Assembly: GCA_017439345.1 (NCBI GenBank) | Contig: JAFSJJ010000010.1 | Coordinates: 10,442 to 74,441 of the forward strand | DNA: 64,000 nt | Reading direction: 5' to 3' | Origin: Synergistaceae bacterium | GTDB taxonomy: Bacteria > Synergistota > Synergistia > Synergistales > Aminobacteriaceae | Shown: in pieces, positions 8,766 to 46,070 of the stretch | Layout: every line of letters begins with the position of its first letter | Numbering within the stretch: position 1 is the stretch's first letter | Position numbers and translations under genes: made by a program | The notes under the pieces: generated by a model | Told to the model about the DNA's origin: nothing | The model's input: only the letters and a program-made list of their open reading frames with translations | The model's database searches: none

Positions 8766-9701
8766 TTATTCAGTTATGCCCGTAGCTTGAGATGCAAGTT
8801 CCGGAGAAAAGCCCATTTCGAGCAGCTTTTGATAAATATTCCTGCTTGCCTCTGCTTTACCATCAAGCAAACCCTTAGCTATTCCTTCGCGTCTGCCTTC
8901 ACGCCTGCCTTTAGCTTCGCCTTTAGCTACCTGCCGTGAAAGAAAGTTATCCATTGTTACTTTGTCTCCTTTCTCGTAATCATAAAGAATTCTGTTTTGT
9001 GCATATTCAAAAGTTTTATCGCCTGTCAATGCCCTCATCAGCTTTAACAGGGAGTCAACGTGTTCAATCTCCCATTTTGAAGCCTTGTAGTTCTTAGTAA
9101 TTCTCTTCTGCCTGAAGTAATCTACGACGATCCTGAAATCACTCGTAAACTTCGCCGCTTGTTCGTCAGTGAGCCACGCAATTTCTATTATATTAAGTTT
9201 TGCATCGTTCACAAACGGCCTAAAGCTCTTGGGAATATCCAGACATTCAAAAAGTGTTCGGGGCTTCTTCCAGCATCTCATGCCGTAATATAACACGATT
9301 GTTACTACAGGATAAAATTTCGTGTTAAGAAGTCTTTTCACTTCCTCAGAGTCCTCTGCTTTCTTGGCTGCCTTTATATCATCATCGCGTCTGGTTATCT
9401 GTACCCGATAGTCTCCTCCCTCGTAACCTGCGACTCTGACCGGCATTGCTTTATCAATCGTGCTTTGGTTCTCAAGACCTAGAAGACAAAAAATTATTCC
9501 GCCCTTAGTCCATAATTTAACGGTGTCCCGTTCCTGCTCGTGTATCTCTCCTGATGACGAATAAACATTTCGAGTCCTGACATCCTGCAAGTCCTCAGGA
9601 GCTATTTTTTCATCAAGAGGCAGCAAACCGTTAATAATATCTGCAAAGACATCGTTATAATCTTCAAGTTTTTTCTCAAGTATATCTTTATCGTGAGTCA
9701 T
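8766..9701 (-). CDS. Rpn/YhgA-family recombination-promoting nuclease (putative transposase-like PD-(D/E)XK)
   Basis: 311 aa with an N-terminal DVFADIINGLL region and the family-typical C-terminal KGxxEG-type repeats (GEAKGRREGRREGIAKGLLDG). Confidence 0.7.
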   Translation of the reverse strand: MTHDKDILEKKLEDYNDVFADIINGLLPLDEKIAPEDLQDVRTRNVYSSSGEIHEQERDTVKLWTKGGIIFCLLGLENQSTIDKAMPVRVAGYEGGDYRVQITRRDDDIKAAKKAEDSEEVKRLLNTKFYPVVTIVLYYGMRCWKKPRTLFECLDIPKSFRPFVNDAKLNIIEIAWLTDEQAAKFTSDFRIVVDYFRQKRITKNYKASKWEIEHVDSLLKLMRALTGDKTFEYAQNRILYDYEKGDKVTMDNFLSRQVAKGEAKGRREGRREGIAKGLLDGKAEASRNIYQKLLEMGFSPELASQATGITE

Positions 9702-9766: not shown

Positions 9767-10948
9767 GTGAACATTTACCCGTTGAATATATCATCACAGC
9801 AGGACATCAATAACATATGCGCAAAGATTCAGACGGACTCAAGGGCATTGGCTTACTTGTCGCCTAAATATAAAATTCTGCACTTCTACGCTGAGAACAT
9901 AGACTACAGGGCAGCGGCTTTTCTCAAGCAGGAATTATTATCACGCGGCGGAGACACTATAGTTACTAAGCACGTAATAGACGGCAAAAGCTCATCAAGC
10001 AATATATTACTCATGGGAACAAGCTCGCAGATTAAGAGCCTGATTCAAAAATTATCTTCAATGGACTGCTGGGGACTGAAAGATTTACGCGAGAGTCTTT
10101 CACGTTCATTCACGAATATAAATATTAACAAATGGCACATCAACAGCAAAATAACTCTCGACAACGATAACACTAAATTAATGGCAATTATAAATCTTAC
10201 TCCGGACTCATTCTACGAGGGCAGCAGAGTCAACGAGTCTCAAATAATCAACACTGCACAGAAATTCTTGAACGAGGGCGCATATATTCTTGACATCGGG
10301 GCAGAGTCGACGCGTCCCGGAGCAGCTCAGGTTGACTCAGAAGAGGAAATTTCGCGGTTAATCCCTGCACTGAAAATTTTACGGCGTGAGTTTGGTGATA
10401 AATTAATAATTTCAGTCGACACTTACAAAGCACTCACAGCACGGTCAGCAATTGACTCAGGAGCAGACATAATTAACGACATAAGCGGCTTCTCACTTGA
10501 TAGGGACATGCTAACTACAATCGCAAAGTTAAACGTCCCGTATATACTCTCTCACATTGAAGGCACTCCATCTAACATGAAAGAATTTGAAGGCCATGAA
10601 GATATTATTAATACCCTGCAAGTTTACTTCACTGATAAAATAAACGCTCTCGAACAGGCAGGACTCAGACGTGAGAATATTATTCTTGATCCGGGCTTAG
10701 GCTTTGCTAAGTCAGAACACGACAACTTCATGATAATAAAGCATATCGAATCGCTAAAAGTTTTCGGGCTGCCAATCATGACAGGACACTCAAGAAAGAG
10801 ATTCACAGGTGATAAAAACGAAATTGCAGGGACTCTTGCCGTGAGTTCATTATTGGCTGGACGGGTGAGTCTCCTGCGTGTTCATGATGTCAGAGAAAAT
10901 TTGCTTGCTGTCTCAGTGAGTCAAAGTATTCATGAATCACAGTTTTGA
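9767..10948 (+). CDS. folP: Dihydropteroate synthase with an uncharacterised ~135-aa N-terminal extension
   Basis: From ORF 9719..10948; the likely start is GTG 9767 with GGAGGA 8 nt upstream. The pterin-binding domain begins near LMAIINLTPDSFYEGSR, followed by DIGAESTRPGA, DTYK, INDISG and GHSRK. Confidence 0.9.
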   Translation: MNIYPLNISSQQDINNICAKIQTDSRALAYLSPKYKILHFYAENIDYRAAAFLKQELLSRGGDTIVTKHVIDGKSSSSNILLMGTSSQIKSLIQKLSSMDCWGLKDLRESLSRSFTNININKWHINSKITLDNDNTKLMAIINLTPDSFYEGSRVNESQIINTAQKFLNEGAYILDIGAESTRPGAAQVDSEEEISRLIPALKILRREFGDKLIISVDTYKALTARSAIDSGADIINDISGFSLDRDMLTTIAKLNVPYILSHIEGTPSNMKEFEGHEDIINTLQVYFTDKINALEQAGLRRENIILDPGLGFAKSEHDNFMIIKHIESLKVFGLPIMTGHSRKRFTGDKNEIAGTLAVSSLLAGRVSLLRVHDVRENLLAVSVSQSIHESQF

Positions 10949-10952
10949 TTTA

Positions 10953-12091
10953 TTAATGTGAGAACTTGTGCCTAATCCAGAACCAAGTATATTTAATCAA
11001 GTTAAGAACTGGTATTTTATTTATGACCCGATACTTAAATGATGCAAAGATTCTCTGAAGCAAAGGCTTGTTTAAACGTTCGGTTAATAAATCTATATTA
11101 GCTGTCGTCTTATCTGCAAGAATGTCTATTAATTCACTGTGAGTTATATCTCTTCCCCATTCAGCTGCGAGAAATGTATTCCAGTATAATTTTTCGTGTG
11201 CTGCTCCTGTGAAGACTTTCCACGGCTTGGGGACTGCGTACATATGCATTATGCAATGTGATAAATCTAGGTCTTTATTAAGAAGGTCATAGACATTGAA
11301 TCTGGGATCAATAAATTTTTTATCGCTTTCGAAAACAGAATTAATTGCATCCTGGTCCGGGAAGAGCGGCATATGACGATAATACATAAGCCATTCAAGG
11401 ATAATTTTGCTGAAATCTCCTCTTTCGCGAATTTTTTTGAGATTCATAACAGTTACTCCGGAATTAATATATTGTGTTCTGTTGCAGCCTAAAAATTCTA
11501 CATGCAGTGATAATTCTGATAAAAATTTCTGGCTGTGAACCCTGTCTAATACGCCGGCAATGCTTTTATTCTCAAGATCGATGCTCCAGAGTTCGTTAAT
11601 ATCAAGATTTACGATTATGTCGCAGTCAATATAGATTATTTTGTCAAGTGCAGGCAAAGCTTCAGGGATAAACATTCTGTAAAGAGCTCCGACCGTCCAT
11701 TGTCCTGAAATATGCTTTATTGATTCGCTGATTCTTTTTTCATGCTCTGTTATGTCGATAAACTCTAAAGTCTGTGAAAAATTTTCTGCTGTCTTGATTA
11801 ATTTATTGCGGTTGTCCTGTGTTAAAGTCTCATCATGCAGAATATGAATTGTAACAGGATTATGAGTGTGCTGAAAAATTGAAGTGATTACTACGCCTGC
11901 ATTCTGTGAATAATTTCCTGAAGGGTCATAGAGTGCTAATGCTACGTGTATGCGTTCAAGTGTTTCATTAGGCTTTAAGGCACAATAACAGCGTTGGGCG
12001 TTGGGCGTTGGGCGTTGGGCGTTGGGCGTTGGGCGTTGGGCGTTGGGCGTTGGGCGTTGGGCGTTGGGCGAATTGTAAAGTTATTTTGCAT
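10953..12091 (-). pseudogene. GT8-family glycosyltransferase with no usable in-frame start (phase-OFF or frameshifted)
   Basis: The listed ORF 10953..11675 (DCDIIV, GT8 C-terminal half) continues open upstream to 12080, encoding ...NETLERIHVALALYDPSGNYSQNAGVVITS (the GT8 N-terminus). That stretch has no ATG/GTG/TTG. The upstream ATGs at 12091 and 11968 are both in the wrong frame. Confidence 0.7.
11991..12070. repeat. Perfect heptanucleotide tandem repeat, (GCGTTGG)x11 plus GCG
   Basis: Read directly from the sequence: 80 nt with an exact 7-nt period. The ORF-track entry 11994..12197 (GVGRWAL repeats) is its translation. Confidence 0.97.
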
Positions 12092-12100
12092 TCCTGTCAA
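12072..12100 (-). promoter_or_regulatory. Sigma70-type promoter, TTGACA-17 nt-TACAAT, facing the GT8 gene
   Basis: On the minus strand the -35 TTGACA is at 12100..12095 and the -10 TACAAT is at 12077..12072, with a 17-nt spacer. The same architecture is conserved in the paralogous copy at 17198..17226. Confidence 0.5.
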
Positions 12101-12158
12101 GCTCCCTGTTAATAATTTGCGTTTTTGTAATTACAACATAAAGCATTCATGCACTATT

Positions 12159-12269
12159 ATAAAAACGAAATTGCAGGGACTCTTGCTGGACGTGTGAGTC
12201 TCCTGCGTGTTCATGATGTCAAAGCTAATATGATTGCCGTCTCAGTGAGTAAAAGTATTCATGAATCAC
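12159..12269 (+). pseudogene. Relic duplicate of the folP 3' end (last ~37 codons, in-frame 18-nt deletion)
   Basis: Aligns with 10812..10940 with about 8 substitutions and one 18-nt gap. It translates as KNEIAGTLAGRVSLLRVHDVKANMIAVSVSKSIHESLF*, compared with KNEIAGTLAVSSLLAGRVSLLRVHDVRENLLAVSVSQSIHESQF* for folP. Confidence 0.85.
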
Positions 12270-12614
12270 TTTTCTAATTGACTCGCATTCTGACTCGGTC
12301 AATCTTGAGTCATTATTCTCGTCAAACATTTTATTGATTCCGCCTATGATTTCTTCAGCGAGTGAAGCAACTAAATCACTATCACCGGACATGCTTAATA
12401 TTTTTATGCCGTAATCGAAATCGCGTTTCAGGTTATCGAATTTTTCAGGGGTCGCAACAACTCTGCATTCATTCAGGGAGGATTCACGGACTCCGGGCTT
12501 CATGAGTTCCCATTTAAATTTTGCCTGAGGGTCAAAGCGGTTTGCAAGCTCCATTAATTCTTTGGCTCCTGATGAGATTTTCTTCTTGAACGTGTTAATT
12601 ATGTTCGCTGCCAT
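12225..12614 (-). CDS. Hypothetical small soluble protein (129 aa), last gene of the GTPase operon
   Basis: The ORF overlaps the upstream gene by 20 nt. I recognise no motif. Its final 15 codons are antisense to the folP-tail relic. Confidence 0.6.
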   Translation of the reverse strand: MAANIINTFKKKISSGAKELMELANRFDPQAKFKWELMKPGVRESSLNECRVVATPEKFDNLKRDFDYGIKILSMSGDSDLVASLAEEIIGGINKMFDENNDSRLTESECESIRKVIHEYFYSLRRQSY

Positions 12615-13449
12615 GTGATAAAGTTTTGTCTATTGACGGCGATACTACATCGTATTTTAAGACGCTGGAGTCTCTCGATGAAAAATGACGTTCCGGAAGT
12701 GCTTTCTTAATATCTTCTGTGAGTCCGTTGATAACTTCTCGGCGGTTGACCTCTTGAGCCTTCTGAATCTCTTGAGCCTTATCCCTGCCTCCAAAGACAT
12801 AACAGCCCGCGATAAAAACTCCTACAAGTACTGCAACACCTACTGTAACTGCTGCAATCTTCTTTACTTTACCTGAAGAGTTATCTTTATCATCATCAGC
12901 AAATGACTCTGTTTCTGTTATGTCAAAGACCCTGCCAATATTAATATATTGCTCCTCACCGTTACGCTTCGTCCACTTCAGAACTTTGCCTTTATGAAGC
13001 CAGCCGTTGTCCTCGAAATCTCCGCCGTCAGACTGAAGCCAGCTCATGAAAGCAGACTCGTCAAGTTTAACGCCTTCTGCTTCAGTGCCTTCGTTAATGT
13101 CTTGAAGATTATTACTCAGCCAATTTTCAACGTCCTCCCAGTGATCGCTAATCTTAATGAACGCTGAAGCTGCTTTGCTAATCTCTTCAATCGGGAAAAT
13201 TTCACAGAACGAGAATCTTATTGCTCGTCCCCTCTCGTCTCGTTTATGGCGGTCAAGACCTGAAGCTACGAGATAAATTTTTGCATTCTCAATGAACGAA
13301 CATACGCACTCTTCGCCTTCAAGAATGCTGCATTTCTGACGCAGGGGCCTGAAACCTTCATAATTGCTGACAGTACCTGAGCCTCCGTTGATAAAGACCC
13401 TGTAATCTACAAATCTTGTGCGCGTTACGAATCTGAAATTATCACTCAT
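12595..13449 (-). CDS. Hypothetical single-pass membrane protein (284 aa)
   Basis: Has GGGGGTG 8 nt upstream of the ATG. It has a ~195-aa N-terminal domain, one TM helix (IAAVTVGVAVLVGVFIAGCYVF) and a ~65-aa charged C-terminal tail. Confidence 0.7.
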   Translation of the reverse strand: MSDNFRFVTRTRFVDYRVFINGGSGTVSNYEGFRPLRQKCSILEGEECVCSFIENAKIYLVASGLDRHKRDERGRAIRFSFCEIFPIEEISKAASAFIKISDHWEDVENWLSNNLQDINEGTEAEGVKLDESAFMSWLQSDGGDFEDNGWLHKGKVLKWTKRNGEEQYINIGRVFDITETESFADDDKDNSSGKVKKIAAVTVGVAVLVGVFIAGCYVFGGRDKAQEIQKAQEVNRREVINGLTEDIKKALPERHFSSRDSSVLKYDVVSPSIDKTLSHGSEHN

Positions 13450-13453
13450 AGTT

Positions 13454-14437
13454 TTACACCCCCATTAATTCTTTTCCGCAGATTATTTCATTTCTGCTGC
13501 TTCCGGAAGATATTCCGCTGCGGACATATTTTGCGATGTCAGGCATGTTGTCAGGCGAGAAAAATTCCCAGTCCCAAACGCAAACAAAGTGAAACATTTT
13601 GCGCCATATACTTTTGCTGCGTTTCTGCTGCTTCCTGAACTGCTCGAATAAGAAGCTCATTGCGAATCTCAAAGGCTGGTCGGTGTATTCGGGACTAAAA
13701 GTTTTGCCGTTGACTTTCATGAAAACCTGCTCTACTGCTCTGCCGCCTGCTGTCTTTAAATAGCTGAATTTGACATTGCCCATCGTGTTAATCGGGACTA
13801 TTGCAATTGCCAGCTTGCCTTTATAAGTTTCCTGTCCCATTTTGATTGTGTCATGAAAAGCATTCTTGACTGCCTGCTTCAATGCCTGCTGAGAGCTCCA
13901 GCTTTCCATATACTTTTCGCACTTAATCGGCACGAGCAGAATTAATCTCTCCTGCTTGTCTGATTCTCCGATTACTTCTTTTATCATGAGTTCGACATCT
14001 CTAATAGCTGCCTGCTCTGCATATTTCCCGCCTTGTTCCATTAAGTAGGGTGTATCGACTGCGACTATAAACACCAAAGACTGCTTCATTAACTTGATGA
14101 CTTGATTATAGTCTTGATCTGCTGCACTGCGAGCTATCCATCTTCCGGGGAAATCAAAGAATCTCACGGGCATAATGTTTTTATTACCCTTAATCTTGAA
14201 ATCGAAGGAAGTCATGTCTTCAGTATTCTTGACTTCACTGATATTCAATGTGCTAGGGTTTGCTGATTCCTTGAGTCTCTGATAAGCGTCCTCAAGAATG
14301 CCAAATGTCCTTCTGTCAGGGTAAAACGTTCCGGGTATCATGCTCTCAAGCTCTCTGTTCATGCAGGCAAGCATTGAAGTTTTGCCCGAACCCGAAGGCC
14401 CAAGCATTGTGAATATTAACGGTTTTGTCTCTGCCAT
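13454..14437 (-). CDS. P-loop GTPase-like protein (327 aa, TRAFAC-type motifs)
   Basis: Walker A/G1 is MLGPSGSGKTSML and G3/Walker B is RFFDFPGRW. There is no canonical NKxD; LVPIKCEKY is a possible G4 variant. Confidence 0.8.
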   Translation of the reverse strand: MAETKPLIFTMLGPSGSGKTSMLACMNRELESMIPGTFYPDRRTFGILEDAYQRLKESANPSTLNISEVKNTEDMTSFDFKIKGNKNIMPVRFFDFPGRWIARSAADQDYNQVIKLMKQSLVFIVAVDTPYLMEQGGKYAEQAAIRDVELMIKEVIGESDKQERLILLVPIKCEKYMESWSSQQALKQAVKNAFHDTIKMGQETYKGKLAIAIVPINTMGNVKFSYLKTAGGRAVEQVFMKVNGKTFSPEYTDQPLRFAMSFLFEQFRKQQKRSKSIWRKMFHFVCVWDWEFFSPDNMPDIAKYVRSGISSGSSRNEIICGKELMGV

Positions 14438-14479
14438 AACGTTAACTCCTTTGTTAGTAGAATCTTTTCGCTGAGATAA

Positions 14480-14647
14480 TTACTTGCTTTGTTTAAGTAT
14501 CCAAGCAATGACAAAAGCTGTTACTGCTGAAGCTAGTGCTGAGGCCAAGAGCCACATCACTTTTTCTAAATTGCCTAAACTATTTTCCGCAAGCAAAACA
14601 AACCAAGAAGTCCCGCATAGAAGAAAAATAATACACACACAATCCAT
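14480..14647 (-). CDS. Possible small hydrophobic protein (55 aa); an alternative 25-aa ORF runs from ATG 14652
   Basis: Below the ORF-track cutoff. Hand translation gives MDCVCIIFLLCGTSWFVLLAENSLGNLEKVMWLLASALASAVTAFVIAWILKQSK. It fills the only gap in the operon. GGGGG lies 10-15 nt upstream of the two ATGs. Confidence 0.3.
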   Translation of the reverse strand: MDCVCIIFLLCGTSWFVLLAENSLGNLEKVMWLLASALASAVTAFVIAWILKQSK

Positions 14648-14659
14648 TTCATATTGTAT

Positions 14660-16933
14660 TTACCCCCTGAACATAAAATTAGATGAACTCAATAACGCAG
14701 CAATCTCACTCAACGGAGCGCGTAAAGCTGCACATAATTCATTTCGTCTTTGTGAAGCCCCGTACTCTTCAGGCCACACTTTCCCCCTGATTGACCGGTA
14801 AAATCTCCGCCACTGATTTTGAAGACTCTTGCCTTCAAGTTGATTTGATCTGATGACTATATCTTTGAATTCTTCGGCCGCTGCAAAAGCTGCCTTGTTA
14901 GGTTCCGAGTATATATCTGCAAATGTCCTGTAAATCTCGTTAATCGTTTCGTAATAAAGAGCCTCAAGCAGTGTTATTGTCTCGCCGATGTCTGACAAGG
15001 GAACAACGTATTCTTGTGACGCTTTGTCTAACGGGTCAAGCCTGTTGAGCGAACTTCTGAGCCTGTGCTGAATAAAGCTCCTGTAATTCATTGAGTAGCC
15101 GAATAACAGGTTAAAGCCTTCAATGAGGGCGGGGACATCGTCTTTGAATTCTGATTTATCAAGGAAATTTATAATCTCGTTGAGCAGTCTGTAATCTCTG
15201 ACTCCGAAAGCCTTTTCAAGTCTGCCGGTATCTGCAAGAATCTCGCATATTTTATTCTTCATGTCGAGCAGCACAGCATTTAATGTAACGTCTAAATTTT
15301 CCTGAAGCTGTGAACTTAATTCCGTCCTGAGCAGGTGCATTGCATTTTCACGGGCCGTCTGAAGTCCTCCTGCCATGTTTGAAGTTTCCTTGATGTAGCT
15401 AGTGTAGTTTGCAGCCAAATCAAATTCTTCTGCCGACTTTAGAATCTCCATGATCTTTTCTTTAAATGGTATGCAGTCATCATCGCGCTTGACTCTTAAT
15501 TCTGAACCTTCGCCGACAACTTCTTGAAGCTTCATCCGCAGTTTGTTCCATAAGTCGTCCCAGAGGTCGTCAAATTTTCCGCTGTCCCTCTCTGAGTTAG
15601 AGTCATCACGCAAGAGCCACATAGCTTTATCCGTAATATCTTTGATGTCTGATAACAGCTTGTTCAAGAGTTCCTGAAGATTTTTCGCGTACTCTAAATC
15701 ATTGCGTTCAATATTGGCTGCGAGAAACTCTAATGCCTTATCAATTAATTTCTGTGAGACTTCATCAGGATTAGTGCAGTCTACGATAACAGAGTCAGAC
15801 ACTTTGATTTGAGCACTTGACATGTACTTTTGCATTAACTCGCACTGAGGCATATTCTCCGCTCCAGGTCTTGAGTCGTGGTTGAATACCCAGAATGACC
15901 AGCGTTCTATAGGAAGTTTTTCACCGAGCGCACGTTTTGCCTGACTATATAAATGAATCTCGTTATCCTGCCAGGCTGCTCCGGTATTTGAGGGCTTTGA
16001 CAGAAAGAAGACTAAATCAACCTGATCGCTCAATGCAGATACGACTCTTTTAACGTCTCCGATTCGAGTGTCTCCGAGTCCCGGCAGGTCTATTAATCTC
16101 AATGCGTTTACGTCAGTGTTAGGGAACTTGCAGAAAATTTCTACCCGGTCAACTGCTGCGTGTTTGAAAAATACTCTTTCACCCTTTGCGTTATCTTGAG
16201 CTACGTATTCGCGTATTTGTTCCCGTGATATTCTTAGCGGCGGCTTGTCTAAGTACTCCTGATACTGGCTCAAGTGGTCTTGTAAGTCCTTCAGGTGTTC
16301 TAAGTGCAGATTCATTTGAGTTATATATTCAGGGCTTGCCTTCAACGTTCCAGGCTCAGGGATATTTTGAGTCTTGAACTCTGCAACGCTTGACGGAGGG
16401 AATAAATCAATTTTATGCTGCTGAAGGTCTGCAAAGTAAGGCTCGATGTTCTCAGATATAAAGCGTCTCTCAGTCAGAAAATTTACTACTGCATAGGCTT
16501 CACTTGCTGAAGGGTCGTTAATTATATCGCTTCGGACTCCTGTGCAGAATGCCAAATTTCCGTCCGGTATCTCCTGAGCACTTAGTCCCGTTATCGTCTG
16601 TAAGAGTCTGCTCTTGCCCTGTCTAGCTCTGCCGATTACTGCGATGTTAAGGGTTCTGCGTGAGAGTCTTGCTGCTATGTTGTGCAAGTCCGCCGTTAAC
16701 CAGCTGCCTTCGTTGATTATGTGTTCCGATGAGTTCACTGTCTTGAAGAGTTCCGCAAGGTTTCCTGATTCTGAGTCTGACTCTGAGTCTATGTCCCTGT
16801 TATATTTCCTGCATAAGTTCGAGAATTCCTCAAACTTTGAGAGTACCCGCGATAATTTCTCTCTTGACTGGGTAATCTTCTCTGCAAGAGGCGCGCGCTG
16901 ATTGATAATGCTCTCGATGAAGTCCTGTCTCAT
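14660..16933 (-). CDS. Dynamin-family large GTPase (bacterial dynamin-like protein, 757 aa)
   Basis: G1 is IAVIGRARQGKSRLLQTITG and G3 is LRLIDLPGLGDT. It has a long helical C-terminal half (~400 aa) and an N-terminal acidic/Ser stretch, DIDSESDSESG. Confidence 0.85.
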   Translation of the reverse strand: MRQDFIESIINQRAPLAEKITQSREKLSRVLSKFEEFSNLCRKYNRDIDSESDSESGNLAELFKTVNSSEHIINEGSWLTADLHNIAARLSRRTLNIAVIGRARQGKSRLLQTITGLSAQEIPDGNLAFCTGVRSDIINDPSASEAYAVVNFLTERRFISENIEPYFADLQQHKIDLFPPSSVAEFKTQNIPEPGTLKASPEYITQMNLHLEHLKDLQDHLSQYQEYLDKPPLRISREQIREYVAQDNAKGERVFFKHAAVDRVEIFCKFPNTDVNALRLIDLPGLGDTRIGDVKRVVSALSDQVDLVFFLSKPSNTGAAWQDNEIHLYSQAKRALGEKLPIERWSFWVFNHDSRPGAENMPQCELMQKYMSSAQIKVSDSVIVDCTNPDEVSQKLIDKALEFLAANIERNDLEYAKNLQELLNKLLSDIKDITDKAMWLLRDDSNSERDSGKFDDLWDDLWNKLRMKLQEVVGEGSELRVKRDDDCIPFKEKIMEILKSAEEFDLAANYTSYIKETSNMAGGLQTARENAMHLLRTELSSQLQENLDVTLNAVLLDMKNKICEILADTGRLEKAFGVRDYRLLNEIINFLDKSEFKDDVPALIEGFNLLFGYSMNYRSFIQHRLRSSLNRLDPLDKASQEYVVPLSDIGETITLLEALYYETINEIYRTFADIYSEPNKAAFAAAEEFKDIVIRSNQLEGKSLQNQWRRFYRSIRGKVWPEEYGASQRRNELCAALRAPLSEIAALLSSSNFMFRG

Positions 16934-17166: not shown

Positions 17167-17246
17167 GGCGTTAAGGCACAATAATAGCGTTGAGCAAAAT
17201 GTAAAATTATTCTGCATCCTTGTCAAGTTCTCCTTCATTAATGATT
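17167..17246. repeat. Direct repeat copy B of the promoter/leader element (single degenerate heptamer unit)
   Basis: GGCGTTAAGGCACAATAATAGCGTTGAGCAAAATGTAAAATTATTCTGCATCCTTGTCAAGTTCTCCTTCATTAATGATT aligns with copy A at 11971..12118. Confidence 0.8.
17198..17226 (-). promoter_or_regulatory. Sigma70-type promoter, TTGACA-17 nt-TACATT, facing the dynamin-like operon
   Basis: On the minus strand the -35 is at 17226..17221 and the -10 is at 17203..17198. This implies a leader of about 255 nt before ATG 16933. Confidence 0.5.
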
Positions 17247-17401
17247 AATAAATAATTTTCATTCAGTTTATTGAGTGATTATAACAAAAAATTTTTCTGC
17301 GTGAATGTTTTTATTTTTTCGTGAACGTTTATTAAAGCCCCTGTAAATTTGCTCTTACTTCTGAAATAATTATTATAGGATTTAATATTTAATCTGGAGG
17401 T

Positions 17402-41455: not shown

Positions 41456-42892
41456 CTACATCATTGGCTGCCATCCTCCGCCCAGAGCCTTAAAGAGTGT
41501 TATCAAGTTCAGCATTCGTTGACCGTTGCTTGAAGCTAAATCGTTCTCGATAGAATTAACGCTTTCCATAGCATTTAAGACGCTGTTAAAGTCCGTAAGT
41601 CCCTGTTCATATTTATCTCTTGCAGTGTTCAAAGCGTCATGAGCGGAATTCAATGCACTCTGCAAACTCTGATTTCTGATTTCCTCCTGAACATTCGACG
41701 TTAAAGCATTCCTGACTTCTGATACTGCACTTAATACAGTTTTCTCATAGGCGGCAAGCATTTGCTCTTCTCTAGCTGTCTGAACCTTAATATTCTTTCT
41801 GATTTGACCTCCGTTAAATATAGGCCAGGATAATCTAGGCAAAAACGTTGAACCTATGCTGTGTCCCTCGAAAATAGTACTTGAATGCAGGCTGTCAAGA
41901 CCTATAGAGCCCGTTAATGTGATAGTCGGATAATAATCTTTCTGAGCGGCTTTCTTTCTTGAACGCTGGGCGGCTAAATTTCTTTCAGCGGCAATAATAT
42001 CCGGCCTCTGTCTTATAGTCTCTGCGGGAATACCGTTAAGCCTGTTTACGTCAACTTCAGGAAAAGAATTATTGTTATTTAACAGCTCGTTAATGCTTCC
42101 CGGAACTTCACCGGTTAATATAGCTAATGCATTCATGATTTCTTCAATCTGCTGCCTCAATGCCGGCAAAGTCGATTTAGTGCGCTCAAGGGTATATCTT
42201 GACTGTTTGACAGCGAGTTCATCTTTCAAGCCTGCGTCAAACTGTGATTGAGTAAGATTTAGCATATCCTGTTGAAGATTAATATTATTCTCGGCTATCT
42301 TGATACGTTCCTGAAAAGTTCTGAGATTAATATAATTTCCTGCGACTTCAGCAGAAAGACTTACCCAAGCATTATGAAGCGAGGCATATTCGGCTTCGTA
42401 GGCTGCTTTAGAGGCGTTGATGTTATCCTGTTTCTTGCCCCACAAGTCAAGCTCCCATGAAGCATCAAATCCTAAGTGATAATTATTCGAGCTTCCTGCA
42501 TTGGGAATATTTTTAGACGGCTCTGAATGCGTCCATGTCCCTGAACCGTCAACTCTAGGGGAAGCATCAGCCATTGAGAGACCTAATTGAGCGCGTGCTT
42601 CCTGAACTTTGGCTCTTGATGTCTGAATATCTTTGTTATTCGCAAATGCCCTGCCGATTAATTCTGTCAAAGTCGGATCATTGAAAGTCTCCCACCATTG
42701 AGCAAGAATGTTTATATTCTTGTCTTTACGTCCTGAGCTTTCGTTGATTAACTTATCCCATTTTGAGGGTGCAAAGTTAATTTTATCTGCACTTGTATAT
42801 TTCTGAACGAGTTCGAGCCAGTCATCTGCATATACAGTGTGTGTGTTCAATGTAAGTAAAATTACTAATGCTAAGATTGCTTTATTCGTCAT
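41456..42892 (-). CDS. Outer-membrane efflux factor (TolC/NodT family)
   Basis: From ORF 41456..42949; start moved to the Met before TNKAILALVILLTLNTHTVYA (signal peptide). It has two OEP repeats with coiled-coil segments. Confidence 0.85.
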   Translation of the reverse strand: MTNKAILALVILLTLNTHTVYADDWLELVQKYTSADKINFAPSKWDKLINESSGRKDKNINILAQWWETFNDPTLTELIGRAFANNKDIQTSRAKVQEARAQLGLSMADASPRVDGSGTWTHSEPSKNIPNAGSSNNYHLGFDASWELDLWGKKQDNINASKAAYEAEYASLHNAWVSLSAEVAGNYINLRTFQERIKIAENNINLQQDMLNLTQSQFDAGLKDELAVKQSRYTLERTKSTLPALRQQIEEIMNALAILTGEVPGSINELLNNNNSFPEVDVNRLNGIPAETIRQRPDIIAAERNLAAQRSRKKAAQKDYYPTITLTGSIGLDSLHSSTIFEGHSIGSTFLPRLSWPIFNGGQIRKNIKVQTAREEQMLAAYEKTVLSAVSEVRNALTSNVQEEIRNQSLQSALNSAHDALNTARDKYEQGLTDFNSVLNAMESVNSIENDLASSNGQRMLNLITLFKALGGGWQPMM

Positions 42893-45800
42893 CATCATCG
42901 TCATCATCTCCTTCGTCGTCATCGTCATAATTATAATCATAATCATCATGGCCGAACATTCGCGCTAATCCTGCCTTTAATTTCTCTCTGAAAGTCTGCA
43001 TCAACACGAATAATCCGGGAATTAGGAACACTCCGAACACTGTTGCTACAGTCATTCCGAACACCATAGTAGTACCGACATGAAGACGGCTTGCGGCACC
43101 TGCTCCAGTAGCAAATATCATAGGCAATGCACCCAAAACGCATGTAAAAGCAGTCATAAGGACGGATCTAAATCTTTCACGGGCAGCTTCGGCAGCAGCA
43201 TTCAAGATAGTTTGACCTCTTAATTCTCGTTCTTCTTTTGCAAATTCGATGATTAATATAGCGTTCTTGCTTGCGAGACCTACCAGAAGCAATAATCCTA
43301 ACTGAGTATATACGCTGATAGTGATACCCATTACGTAAATTCCGGCTAGTGCGCCTAAAATAGCTACAGGAAGCGAAAGCATAACTGCAAACGGAATGCT
43401 CCAGCTTTCGTATTGAGCAACGAGAAATAGAAATCCGAATAAGACTGCGGCTGTAATGACTATTATAAATTGACTGCCTTCTCTTTGTTCCTGGTAAGTC
43501 TGTCCTGACCACTGATAGGCATAACCTGCGGGAAGTGTTTTAGATAATTCCTGAATTTTTGCGATACCCTGACCGCTTGAATATCCAGGATTTAATGTAA
43601 TCATGACATCTGCGCAGGGATATAGATTAAATCTTGATACAGCTCTTGGTGCAGTTATTTCGCGAAGAGTTACGACACTGCTTACTGGAACCTGCTCGCC
43701 CCATATGTTCGGAATTGGAAGCCTGCCTATGTCGTCAACTGTATTTCTAAATGCCCAGTCGGCTTGAAGCATAACCCTGTTAATCTGCGAGCCTAAGTTA
43801 ATATCATTGACGTAAAGTGTTCCCAGATACATATATAACGTATCGAAAATAGTTCCTGTATTAACGCCCATACTTTCGGCCTTAGCTCTGTCAACGTCAA
43901 GAAATATATGCGGTGTGCTGGCATTGTAAGTCGAGAAAGCATACATGAATTCAGGAGCAGCGTTAATCTGCATAATGAAGTTCTGCAAAACTTTTTCGAG
44001 TTCCAGAGGGTCAAATCTTCCTACAGCCTGCAGCTTCATTTCAAGACCGTTCATCATGCCCAGACCAGGAACTCCTCCTTGAGCGAATATATTAACCTGA
44101 GCTTGAGGGAACTTGCTTGTTATCGCATTAGCCTGAGCCATTATAGAACTCTGTGATAATTCAGGAGTTTTTCTCTCGTCCCAGTCCTTCAGAGTCAAAG
44201 AGAATGCACCGGTATTTTCGCCTGCACCGCCTACAAAGCTGAAACCTTCAATGCCCATGTTATTCTTAACGCCGTCAATCTTTGCCAGAGCCGGAACGAT
44301 TTCGCTTACAAATTTAGAAGTCCTTGCTCCCGATGCACCTTCAGGAAGCTGTATAACTCCCATCAATGAGCCTTGATCTTCCTGAGGGATAAATTCTGAC
44401 GGAGTTATATCCATAATGTAATAAGATGCCCAGCCTACCAGAGCCAGAGATAATATAATTACTATCATACTTCTTGCGATTAACACAGAGATTTTCACGA
44501 ATATATTCGTACTGACATTCAATATAGCATTGAACCATGCAAGAGGCCCTCTAGTCTTAGGCTTTATATTAGTCAGCATATGGGCGCACATTGCAGGACT
44601 CAAAGTAAATGCAACTGTCGTAGAACATACTACGGCGAATGACATAGTAACTCCGAATTGTTTATAAATCTCGCTGGTAATTCCTCCCATGAAGGCAACA
44701 GGAACAAATATAGCCATGAATACCAAAGTAGTAGCAATCATAGGCCCGGAAACGTCAATCATTGCCCGTTCAGTAGCTGCCTTAGCGTCAAGCCCTTCAT
44801 GTTCCATTATGTAAAGCACTCTTTCAACAACGACAATAGCGTCATCAACGACAGTGCCTATGACCAGAACTAAGCCGAACAGGGTAAAAGTATTAATGCT
44901 GTAGTCCAGAACCGCAAGACTTATGAACGTAGCCAATAACGAGACAGGAATAGCAGCCGCCGGTACAAGAGTAACTCTCCAGTCCTGTAAAAATATATAG
45001 CAGACTAACACGACAAGAAAGAATGTTAATGCAAGGGTCTCTAATATTTCCTGAATAGATATTCTGACAAAATCTGTGCTGTCGTAAATTATCTCGAACG
45101 CAGTATCAGAAGGCATAGAATTTTTTGTTTCTTCCATGAACTTTTTAACGCCGTCCATAACGTCAAGAGCATTTGCGTCAGCTCCCTGAGACAAGAATAA
45201 AACAGTACATTCATCGCCGTTGTAAGTCGAATTCACTGAATATGACTCAGAGCCTAACTCAACCCTCGCTACATCTTTGAGCCTGACTACAGCACCTGTA
45301 TTACTGCGCTTTACTATTATATCCTCGAACTCTTCAGCAGCATTTAATCTGCCTTTAGCCACGAGTGAATAAACTATCGGGGTATTATTATCATATCTGG
45401 GACTTGAACCGATTGAACCCAGGGCAGCCTGCTTGTTCTGACTTTGAATAGCCGCACTGACATCTACAGGCGACATGTTCATACTTGATAATTTATCAGG
45501 GTCGAGCCATATTCTGACGCTGTACTTAGCTCCCATGACGTTGACGCTTCCCATACCGGGAATACGCTTTAACGAGTTCACAACGTTATTAACGGCATAA
45601 TCACTCAGGAATAATGCATCACGAGTTTTATTAGGTGAAATAACTGCAACGAAAGCCAGCATGTTCGAGAATGAGACCATAGCAGTTATACCCATTTGAT
45701 TAACTATTGCGGGAAGCTGAGCCGTAGCCTGATGAATTTTGTTCTGAACTTTGACAAGAGCCATATCTGAATTAGTGCCGGTCTCGAACGTTACGACAAG

Positions 45801-46070
45801 ATTATATGCGCCGTTGTTGCTTGATGTAGAATTCATATAAATCATGCCTTCAACGCCGTTGATAGCTTCTTCTAATGGAATTCCTACAGTATTTGCGACG
45901 GTCTGGGCATCTGCGCCGGGGTAATTAGCCATGACCATAATTTGAGGCGGTGCAATATTCGGGTATTGCTTAATAGGCAGTCTGTGAGCGCACAATATAC
46001 CTGCTATCATCAGGATACATGAAATAACTACAGCAAATCTCGGCCTTTGTATAAAAAATTTCGAGAACAT
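42882..46070 (-). CDS. RND-family inner-membrane efflux permease (AcrB-like) with an acidic C-terminal tail
   Basis: 1062 aa starting MFSKFFIQRPRFAVV, with a 12-TM / two-large-loop architecture. The tail is GHDDYDYNYDDDDEGDDDDDDDE. Confidence 0.93.
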   Translation of the reverse strand: MFSKFFIQRPRFAVVISCILMIAGILCAHRLPIKQYPNIAPPQIMVMANYPGADAQTVANTVGIPLEEAINGVEGMIYMNSTSSNNGAYNLVVTFETGTNSDMALVKVQNKIHQATAQLPAIVNQMGITAMVSFSNMLAFVAVISPNKTRDALFLSDYAVNNVVNSLKRIPGMGSVNVMGAKYSVRIWLDPDKLSSMNMSPVDVSAAIQSQNKQAALGSIGSSPRYDNNTPIVYSLVAKGRLNAAEEFEDIIVKRSNTGAVVRLKDVARVELGSESYSVNSTYNGDECTVLFLSQGADANALDVMDGVKKFMEETKNSMPSDTAFEIIYDSTDFVRISIQEILETLALTFFLVVLVCYIFLQDWRVTLVPAAAIPVSLLATFISLAVLDYSINTFTLFGLVLVIGTVVDDAIVVVERVLYIMEHEGLDAKAATERAMIDVSGPMIATTLVFMAIFVPVAFMGGITSEIYKQFGVTMSFAVVCSTTVAFTLSPAMCAHMLTNIKPKTRGPLAWFNAILNVSTNIFVKISVLIARSMIVIILSLALVGWASYYIMDITPSEFIPQEDQGSLMGVIQLPEGASGARTSKFVSEIVPALAKIDGVKNNMGIEGFSFVGGAGENTGAFSLTLKDWDERKTPELSQSSIMAQANAITSKFPQAQVNIFAQGGVPGLGMMNGLEMKLQAVGRFDPLELEKVLQNFIMQINAAPEFMYAFSTYNASTPHIFLDVDRAKAESMGVNTGTIFDTLYMYLGTLYVNDINLGSQINRVMLQADWAFRNTVDDIGRLPIPNIWGEQVPVSSVVTLREITAPRAVSRFNLYPCADVMITLNPGYSSGQGIAKIQELSKTLPAGYAYQWSGQTYQEQREGSQFIIVITAAVLFGFLFLVAQYESWSIPFAVMLSLPVAILGALAGIYVMGITISVYTQLGLLLLVGLASKNAILIIEFAKEERELRGQTILNAAAEAARERFRSVLMTAFTCVLGALPMIFATGAGAASRLHVGTTMVFGMTVATVFGVFLIPGLFVLMQTFREKLKAGLARMFGHDDYDYNYDDDDEGDDDDDDDE

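Follow-up and report, generated by a model that had tools for sequence, protein, structure and literature searches.

How can a glycosyltransferase be made from a reading frame that lacks a start codon and is preceded by a perfect heptanucleotide repeat? The question is raised by a locus of a Synergistaceae bacterium (assembly GCA_017439345.1, contig JAFSJJ010000010.1), which we analysed within a stretch of 64,000 nucleotides (nt), referred to here as the window and used for all coordinates below. The gene lies on the minus strand and belongs to glycosyltransferase family 8 (GT8). We propose that the repeat is a translational phase-variation switch, or contingency locus, on this LgtC-like GT8 gene and that the gene is currently OFF, a reading that we consider about 80% probable. 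An initial annotation, made from the letters of the window, had suggested a slipped-strand ON/OFF switch in its OFF state, and the suggestion is supported by the finding of 11 versus 8 units in identical flanks and of ON and OFF alleles among homologues. The mechanism looks to be a known one, newly met in the Synergistaceae.

A heptanucleotide tract lies between start codon and catalytic domain

Tandem Repeats Finder, run over the whole 64-kb window, reports at 11991-12070 a repeat of period 7 with 11.4 copies of the unit GCGTTGG, 100% matches and 0% indels, in agreement with the exact 80-nt tract of 11 units plus GCG described in the initial annotation; it reports no second long simple-sequence repeat in the window. 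A perfect repeat of 80 nt cannot have arisen by chance. The elements that define the reading frames are as follows.

11991..12070, minus strand (the coding strand): simple-sequence repeat (CCCAACG)x11, 80 nt, 100% perfect
12089..12091, minus strand: ATG start of the switchable open reading frame (ORF), MQNNFTI...; TTG 12100-12098 shares its frame
11975..11977, minus strand: TAA that ends the ATG-12091 frame when the number of units, n, is 2 mod 3, as in the present phase, where it yields a leader peptide of 38 amino acids (aa)
10953..12080, minus strand: GT8 reading frame of 375 open codons plus stop, with the catalytic domain from IHVALALYDP (11951)

Read along the minus strand, the order is AGGGAG-c-TTGACA-GGA-ATG-CAAAATAACTT-TACAAT-TCG-(CCCAACG)11-CTGTTATTGTGCCTTAAAGCC, which places a perfect repeat whose unit is not a multiple of 3 inside an ORF, 3' of ATG 12091 and 5' of the GT8 domain. 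The repeat translates as (RPTPNAQ)n whichever frame is read; in the mRNA sense, C makes up 57% of it, A 29% and G 14%, and U is absent. Translation from ATG 12091 gives MQNNFTI(RPTPNAQ)n...PNAVIVP*, closed by TAA 11977-11975, and the GT8 frame, which encodes ...ERIHVALALYDPSGNYSQNAG..., is open from 12080 to 10953 with its earliest ATG, GTG or TTG at Met 11675 (ORF 10953..11675); both readings are as the initial annotation had given them. Between the tract and the catalytic domain we found no ATG, GTG or TTG in the GT8 frame.

When the locus was rebuilt in silico with n = 3 to 18 units, a full-length protein (360+7k aa) resulted only at n = 3, 6, 9, 12, 15 and 18, as foreseen for 9 and 12 units. 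Products of the n = 1 mod 3 phase end in ...PTLLLCLKA* and those of the n = 2 mod 3 phase in ...PNAVIVP*, so that both OFF phases terminate 6-7 codons past the tract. Because the full-length frame needs n to be a multiple of 3, the allele of the window, with n = 11, is OFF.

Other possible starts and a possible RNA structure were considered and set aside. ATG 11968 shares the frame of ATG 12091, not that of GT8, and encodes MKHLNAYT*, stopping after 8 codons as already noted in the initial annotation. The ATA codon (IHV...) at which the NCBI record begins has no Shine-Dalgarno sequence, and ATA is very rare as a start codon. A possible stem in which TACAAT would pair with ATTGTG over the length of the tract is, on comparison by eye, not conserved in the other leaders.

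Tract length is the sole polymorphism at the locus

A truncated 240-aa product of the gene (P0001) is recorded on 8 contigs, three of which (L001, L002 and L003) were compared with the window. Over 12,744, 4,289 and 3,505 aligned nt, respectively, there are 0 mismatches, and the single gap in each comparison is the tract, with 8 units against 11 in the window. The tract is the sole polymorphism across 12.7 kb. Comparison of orthologous loci, which the initial annotation had named as a check on its proposal, finds a tract that is not invariant (11 versus 8 units at this locus) and that varies in relatives too. The four alleles of the window gene have 11, 8, 8 and 8 units, every one of them OFF in the n = 2 mod 3 phase.

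Homologues carry translated tracts and occur in both states

The tract, taken in the initial annotation for a local expansion, turns out to be common to the GT8 family. Synergistaceae GT8 homologues with about 40-50% protein identity begin with in-frame translated tracts, examples with (RPTPNAQ)n being P0003, P0009, P0012, P0021, P0042 and P0044. Their N-termini read MSEYSDKIAQ(RPTPNAQ)n, MKGEIDNDGRSGYNAPNAQ(RPTPNAQ)n or MMDNLGTM(RPTPNAQ)n; related units, RTTHNAQ (CACAACG) and SNEQRAT (AGCAACG), occur as well, and some homologues have start codons in two frames. Clusters formed at 90% identity contain alleles whose lengths are exactly 7 or 14 aa apart (370/377, 365/379, 361/368 and 362/376). 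The tracts of two such genes distribute over the frames as follows.

Cluster-1 gene: n = 8, 10, 8, 11, 10, 10; n = 8 and 11 in frame from a GTG/TTG start (ON), n = 10 OFF
Cluster-3 gene: n = 5, 9, 8, 5, 5, 5; n = 5 and 8 OFF, n = 9 ON solely when read from an ATG that lies 43 nt upstream of the tract

The cluster-1 alleles L123 (n = 8, ON) and L128 (n = 10, OFF) show 0 mismatches over 4,111 nt and one 14-nt gap, and L123 against L130 (OFF) again shows 0 mismatches beyond one 14-nt gap. Both ON and OFF frames are seen in this homologue, whereas the window gene is seen OFF only. A metagenome scan of 78 GT8 relatives found four in which a repeat of three or more units precedes the catalytic domain by 32-41 nt, namely (CACACGA)5, (CCCAAAG)4, (CCCAACG)3 and the pentanucleotide (CATCA)4, and a fifth with a repeat 166 nt upstream of it. 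All units are CA-rich and G-poor in the mRNA sense. This pattern of repeats among homologues is the one that would be expected of contingency loci.

Other kinds of N-terminal variation are found in the same family. A GT8 relative (L140:2300-2500) has three in-frame copies of a 51-nt (17-aa) repeat, GSHDTRPNGTQVAKHAV, before its catalytic domain, a repeat that would vary the length of the N-terminus and leave the frame unchanged. The GT8 bodies of L220 and L221 are identical (0 mismatches in 2,565 nt) and have two different leaders joined exactly at the tract, and L126 joins the upstream region of the cluster-3 gene to the body of the cluster-1 gene; these joins are either true products of recombination at the repeat that the genes share or chimeras of metagenome assembly.

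Gene annotation does not report the state of these alleles. The NCBI entry for the window gene (P0121, MBQ6772748.1) starts it at the ATA codon, with IHVAL written as MHVAL, and metagenome gene callers give truncated MTSIFENT... products even for in-frame alleles (P0122, P0126 and P0129). We considered a truncated gene call as a readout of the OFF state and rejected it: cluster-1 contigs with n = 8 and 11 are in frame from GTG yet are called as a 312-aa product.

The frame encodes an LgtC-like glycosyltransferase

The window frame matches Pfam PF01501 (Glyco_transf_8) over residues 54-288 with E = 4.5e-37 and a score of 128.4 bits (curated cut-off, 24.3), and the source names of homologues place the gene in the Synergistaceae. 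Of the solved structures, the one that it matches best is that of the Neisseria galactosyltransferase LgtC (1g9r/1ga8; E = 1.7e-15), with the DxD motif YIDCDIIV aligning with YLDIDVLV of LgtC and the N-terminal nucleotide-binding segment NYSQ aligning with NYAA. In a family alignment of the window protein with 17 homologues, the window protein carries all 46 of the columns that are invariant over the 18 sequences, including D-x-D, H236, K242 and W244. Its phase aside, the GT8 gene looks functional. Its product probably acts on lipopolysaccharide or some other glycan of the cell surface, to which it would add a sugar; in relatives, a surface-glycan context is provided by the rmlABCD genes that adjoin the cluster-1 homologue and by Wzz, which adjoins the cluster-10 homologue.

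Two candidate promoters flank and enclose the start codon

Expression of the switch as proposed here would require an mRNA that covers ATG 12091, and the leader contains the following candidate signals.

12102..12107, minus strand: Shine-Dalgarno-like AGGGAG, 10 nt upstream of ATG 12091
12130..12138, minus strand: candidate promoter P1, an extended -10 element (TGTTGTAAT) that precedes both the Shine-Dalgarno sequence and the start codon
12072..12100, minus strand: P2, a sigma-70 promoter-like TTGACA-17-TACAAT

Because repeat-less paralogues begin with VQSNSSTI (P0004) and VHNNANI (P0018) at the equivalent position, directly after the place of TTGACA and matching MQNNFTI, we take ATG 12091 to be the homologous start. 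A Shine-Dalgarno sequence (AAAGGAG, AAGGAG or GAGGAG) stands at the equivalent site in every related leader. At the place equivalent to P1, TGnTAnAAT is present in 9 of 11 repeat-bearing leaders, in that of L091 (TGATATAAT) and in all three leaders of repeat-less paralogues, and the predicted P1 can supply mRNA that covers ATG 12091.

P2 was the caveat of the initial annotation, which pointed out that a near-consensus promoter at 12100..12072 would start transcription inside the tract. The site itself stands, with 11 of 12 consensus positions; it is, however, not peculiar to the window locus, its hexamers being found in 11 leaders, and P1 and the Shine-Dalgarno sequence upstream of it can supply a coding mRNA. 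The start codon lies within P2, whose last position is 1 nt short of the tract as delimited by Tandem Repeats Finder, or 3 nt short of the first CCCAACG unit, and transcription from P2 is predicted to start within that first unit. All 11 distinct repeat-bearing leaders have TTGAC[AT], a spacer of 16-18 nt and TAnAAT (or AATAAT/TTAAAT) 0-3 nt before the tract, and the spacer sequences are unrelated among them. One of the three repeat-less paralogues keeps P2; in the other two it is degenerate (CTTACA/TACAAC and TAGATA/TATACC). Among 73 repeat-less GT8 loci, 7 have any promoter match of at least 10/12 positions in the 130 nt upstream, a contrast confounded by shared ancestry. The association of P2 with the repeat, subject to the same confounding, is only a lead.

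A coding constraint is an unlikely source of the conservation of TTGACA and TACAAT: Thr is encoded by ACA in every case, and the spacer varies over 16-18 nt, so that the frame relation between the hexamers is broken. A promoter-spacer switch was also rejected, the tract lying 1-3 nt 3' of the -10 hexamer and the spacer measuring 16-18 nt in all leaders. An Rfam scan of the window gave no matches, hence no known RNA element at the leader.

What P2 might do is a separate matter. A transcript from it contains no GT8-frame ATG, GTG or TTG before residue 136, as is also the case in homologues, and because this transcript lacks a GT8 start codon, P2 alone cannot express GT8. P2 may raise the slippage rate through repeated melting or scrunching of the first units, or it may interfere with transcription from P1. 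It may also release transcripts without a start codon whose tract loads Rho; the tract, C-rich, G-poor and free of U, resembles a Rho-utilisation site. Any such role, if true, would add a transcriptional layer to the translational switch.

Proposed mechanism and alternatives

We propose that P1, the extended -10 promoter (~12130-12138), is the most likely site of transcription initiation and that ribosomes would bind AGGGAG and initiate at ATG 12091. They would then translate (CCCAACG)n as (RPTPNAQ)n and enter the GT8 frame only at values of n divisible by 3. As the DNA is replicated, 7-nt units would be gained or lost by slipped-strand mispairing, and the gene would thereby shift among three frames, one of them ON and the other two OFF. 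With n = 11 (or n = 8), translation is predicted to halt at TAA 11977 after 38 (or 31) codons, and no enzyme would be made.

Several observations weigh against this proposal. None of the four alleles of the window gene is ON, all lying in a single OFF frame, and an exact look-up among ~15 billion catalogued proteins finds none of the ON proteins for n = 6, 9, 12 or 15; the predicted OFF leader peptides are likewise absent from the catalogue. The tract lengths were taken from short-read metagenome assemblies, and we infer reversibility at the window locus from relatives. The coding model would fail if P2, which would initiate inside the tract and past the start codon, were the sole active promoter. 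On the first of these grounds one might regard the gene as a fixed pseudogene, permanently out of frame in this species and with the tract as a leftover: no ON protein is on record, and NCBI could annotate the window gene (P0121) only by way of an ATA start. We think this improbable. The frame of 375 codons has no other lesion and retains every family-invariant column, and the tract is 100% pure and still changing in length while the 12.7-kb flank has 0 substitutions. Moreover, single-unit steps from 8 to 11 units pass through n = 9, which is ON, and homologues occur in both states.

Somewhat less probable still is that the tract is the 5' untranslated leader of a P2 transcript, its length tuning mRNA stability or translation rather than frame. 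Moraxella uspA1 and uspA2 are tuned in this way by the repeats of their leaders; the near-consensus match of P2, the persistence of its hexamers in the 11 repeat-bearing leaders despite differing spacers and their decay in two of three repeat-less paralogues would all fit. Such a transcript, however, offers GT8 no start before residue 136, here or in homologues; the homologues are read in frame from starts upstream of the tract, with 7-aa steps in length; and P1 and a Shine-Dalgarno sequence lie upstream in nearly all leaders. That the length differences are artefacts, with the repeat collapsed or expanded by short-read assemblers, we consider very improbable. Every sequence does come from metagenome assembly, and in at least two cases a join at the tract has a chimeric appearance (L126; L220 versus L221). 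Tracts of 35-91 nt are nevertheless short enough for one 150-nt read to span them, n = 8 was obtained from each of three independent samples, the counts n = 8, 10 and 5 recur over independent samples, and the same 7-aa steps appear in independently called NCBI and ENA proteins. A translational switch remains the reading that we prefer.

Comparison with known phase-variable loci

The proposed switch has close parallels in mucosal pathogens. In Haemophilus influenzae, lgtC encodes a galactosyltransferase with a 5'GACA repeat tract (PMC3938747), and a family-8 glycosyltransferase has a CAAT repeat in the 5' region of its ORF (PMC2651432); the initiation codons of lic2A were studied by Dixon et al. 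2007, as cited in PMC3938747. Like lgtC, lic2A and the CAAT-repeat GT8 gene, the window gene is a glycosyltransferase gene that would be switched by a repeat in its 5' coding region with a unit length not divisible by 3. Among proteins of solved structure, LgtC is also the one nearest to the window protein, and the start codons in two frames of some Synergistaceae homologues are reminiscent of lic2A. Unlike lgtC, with its tetranucleotide repeat, the window gene has a heptanucleotide unit (CCCAACG) and a consensus promoter embedded around its start codon; its host is an anaerobic gut member of the Synergistaceae, not a pathogen of the Pasteurellaceae, and the switch is here predicted from sequence.

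Heptanucleotide repeats have their own precedents. Phase variation of Neisseria meningitidis pglE is controlled by one (PMC7157529), and this repeat, like that of the window gene, lies inside a glycosyltransferase gene, where it makes a surface glycan phase-variable, as we propose for the window gene. The two genes differ in glycosyltransferase family, in acceptor (pilin glycan for pglE) and in the sequence of the unit, and no shared ancestry of the repeats is implied. The H. influenzae hmw1A and hmw2A genes likewise have heptanucleotide repeats close to a promoter, where they modulate expression (PMC2651432); unlike the window tract, which lies inside the ORF past the -10 hexamer and would set the frame, leaving the distance between the -35 and -10 boxes unaltered, the hmw repeats lie upstream of the gene and grade its transcription. 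Searches of the full-text literature brought up no description of repeat-mediated phase variation for either Synergistetes or Synergistaceae.

Locus history and the leader on other genes

In related genomes the homologous GT8 gene lies between gyrA and folP/S9 peptidase. Two further features of the window bear on how the present arrangement arose.

12159..12279, plus strand: duplicate of the folP 3' end (compare 10812-10950), 87-100% identical, with an 18-nt deletion in the copy
17167..17305, minus strand: relic GT8 5' leader with P1, Shine-Dalgarno sequence, TTGACA, ATG 17217-17215, TACATT, one unit CTCAACG and ~17 GT8-like codons

The two copies of the folP 3' end bracket the GT8 cassette. 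The leader at 17167-17305, in which a promoter reads TTCACG-16-TATAAT with TG, lies near the gyrA side and now stands upstream of a dynamin-like/DO-GTPase2 operon. The initial annotation had correctly seen its single unit (CTCAACG on the minus strand); we read this copy at 17.2 kb as the relic of a former GT8 5' end, not as the ancestral state. Together, the bracketing folP copies and the relic leader suggest cassette replacement at a hypervariable site.

Between the relic leader and the present cassette lies a minus-strand operon of four genes (12225-16933) encoding a 757-aa dynamin/GTPase-like protein, a 327-aa DO-GTPase2 protein and proteins of 284 and 129 aa without a Pfam match; related genomes have GT8 alone between gyrA and folP. 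The antisense strand of the folP copy encodes the C-terminus of the 129-aa ORF (12225-12614). Elsewhere in the window, a Transposase_31 (YhgA-like) ORF on the minus strand (8766-9701) separates the S9 peptidase gene from folP and has no counterpart at the syntenic loci L131-L135. An imperfect (TCA)n / 12-nt repeat of ~20 triplets with 68-74% matches (42886-42949) lies at the junction of the minus-strand ORFs 41456-42949 and 42882-46070, where it is in frame and hence not a frame switch.

The leader is also found on genes of another glycosyltransferase family. In Fretibacterium (L091:1-200, minus strand), GGAGGAG, 7 nt and a TTG start are followed by TATAAT, GCG(CCCAACG)3 and an in-frame ...LSVIVLTYNA of GT2 type, and a protein search with (RPTPNAQ)7 returned 16 short matches that include P0163, a GT2 N-terminus reading MSEYSAKIAQ(RPTPNAQ)3...FSIIVPAYNTE. 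To judge from these sequences, leader and tract behave as a portable module. One may go further and regard P1, the Shine-Dalgarno sequence, the start codon, the embedded P2 and the CA-rich repeat as a portable cassette in which P2 is functionally tied to the repeat, an idea that we offer tentatively and think somewhat unlikely. It appears portable because it is found in the Synergistaceae on GT8 paralogues and on the GT2 genes L091 and P0163, and P2 appears tied to the repeat because it is kept in 11/11 repeat-bearing leaders and decayed in 2/3 repeat-less paralogues.

The repeat unit itself is widespread. A scan of species-representative genomes for (CCCAACG)x3 gave at least 119 loci (L004-L122), L091 being the only Synergistaceae locus among the matches listed. 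The unit is repeated 3-30 times in at least 119 such genomes of many unrelated phyla, a spread that need not amount to enrichment; Verrucomicrobia, Limnohabitans, Acidobacteria, Planctomycetes, Streptomyces and Nitrospirales are among the taxa listed. Arrays of variant heptamers often adjoin the (CCCAACG) arrays, and in one of the Flavobacteriales (L045) ATGAAACG(CCCAACG)5 is followed by a lipoprotein signal peptide.

Implications

Truncated gene calls, or an invented ATA start, mean that the surface-glycan capacity and strain heterogeneity of these bacteria are misread in metagenome-assembled genomes. The gyrA-folP interval emerges as a hypervariable site, with GT8 alleles only 40-50% identical to one another. 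The co-conserved promoter that abuts the repeat is the one feature that could lift this case beyond a routine example, and it offers a handle on the coupling of transcription initiation to repeat instability.

It is chiefly in a small number of mucosal pathogens that contingency loci driven by repeats have been described. An origin in the ruminant gut is suggested by sample labels ('XIEF21') and by the names of metagenome-assembled genomes, and the present locus suggests the same strategy in commensal ruminant-gut Synergistaceae, with the enzyme family of LgtC under repeat control in a little-studied phylum. If the enzyme does act on a surface glycan, switching of the GT8 gene would create antigenic or phage-receptor heterogeneity.

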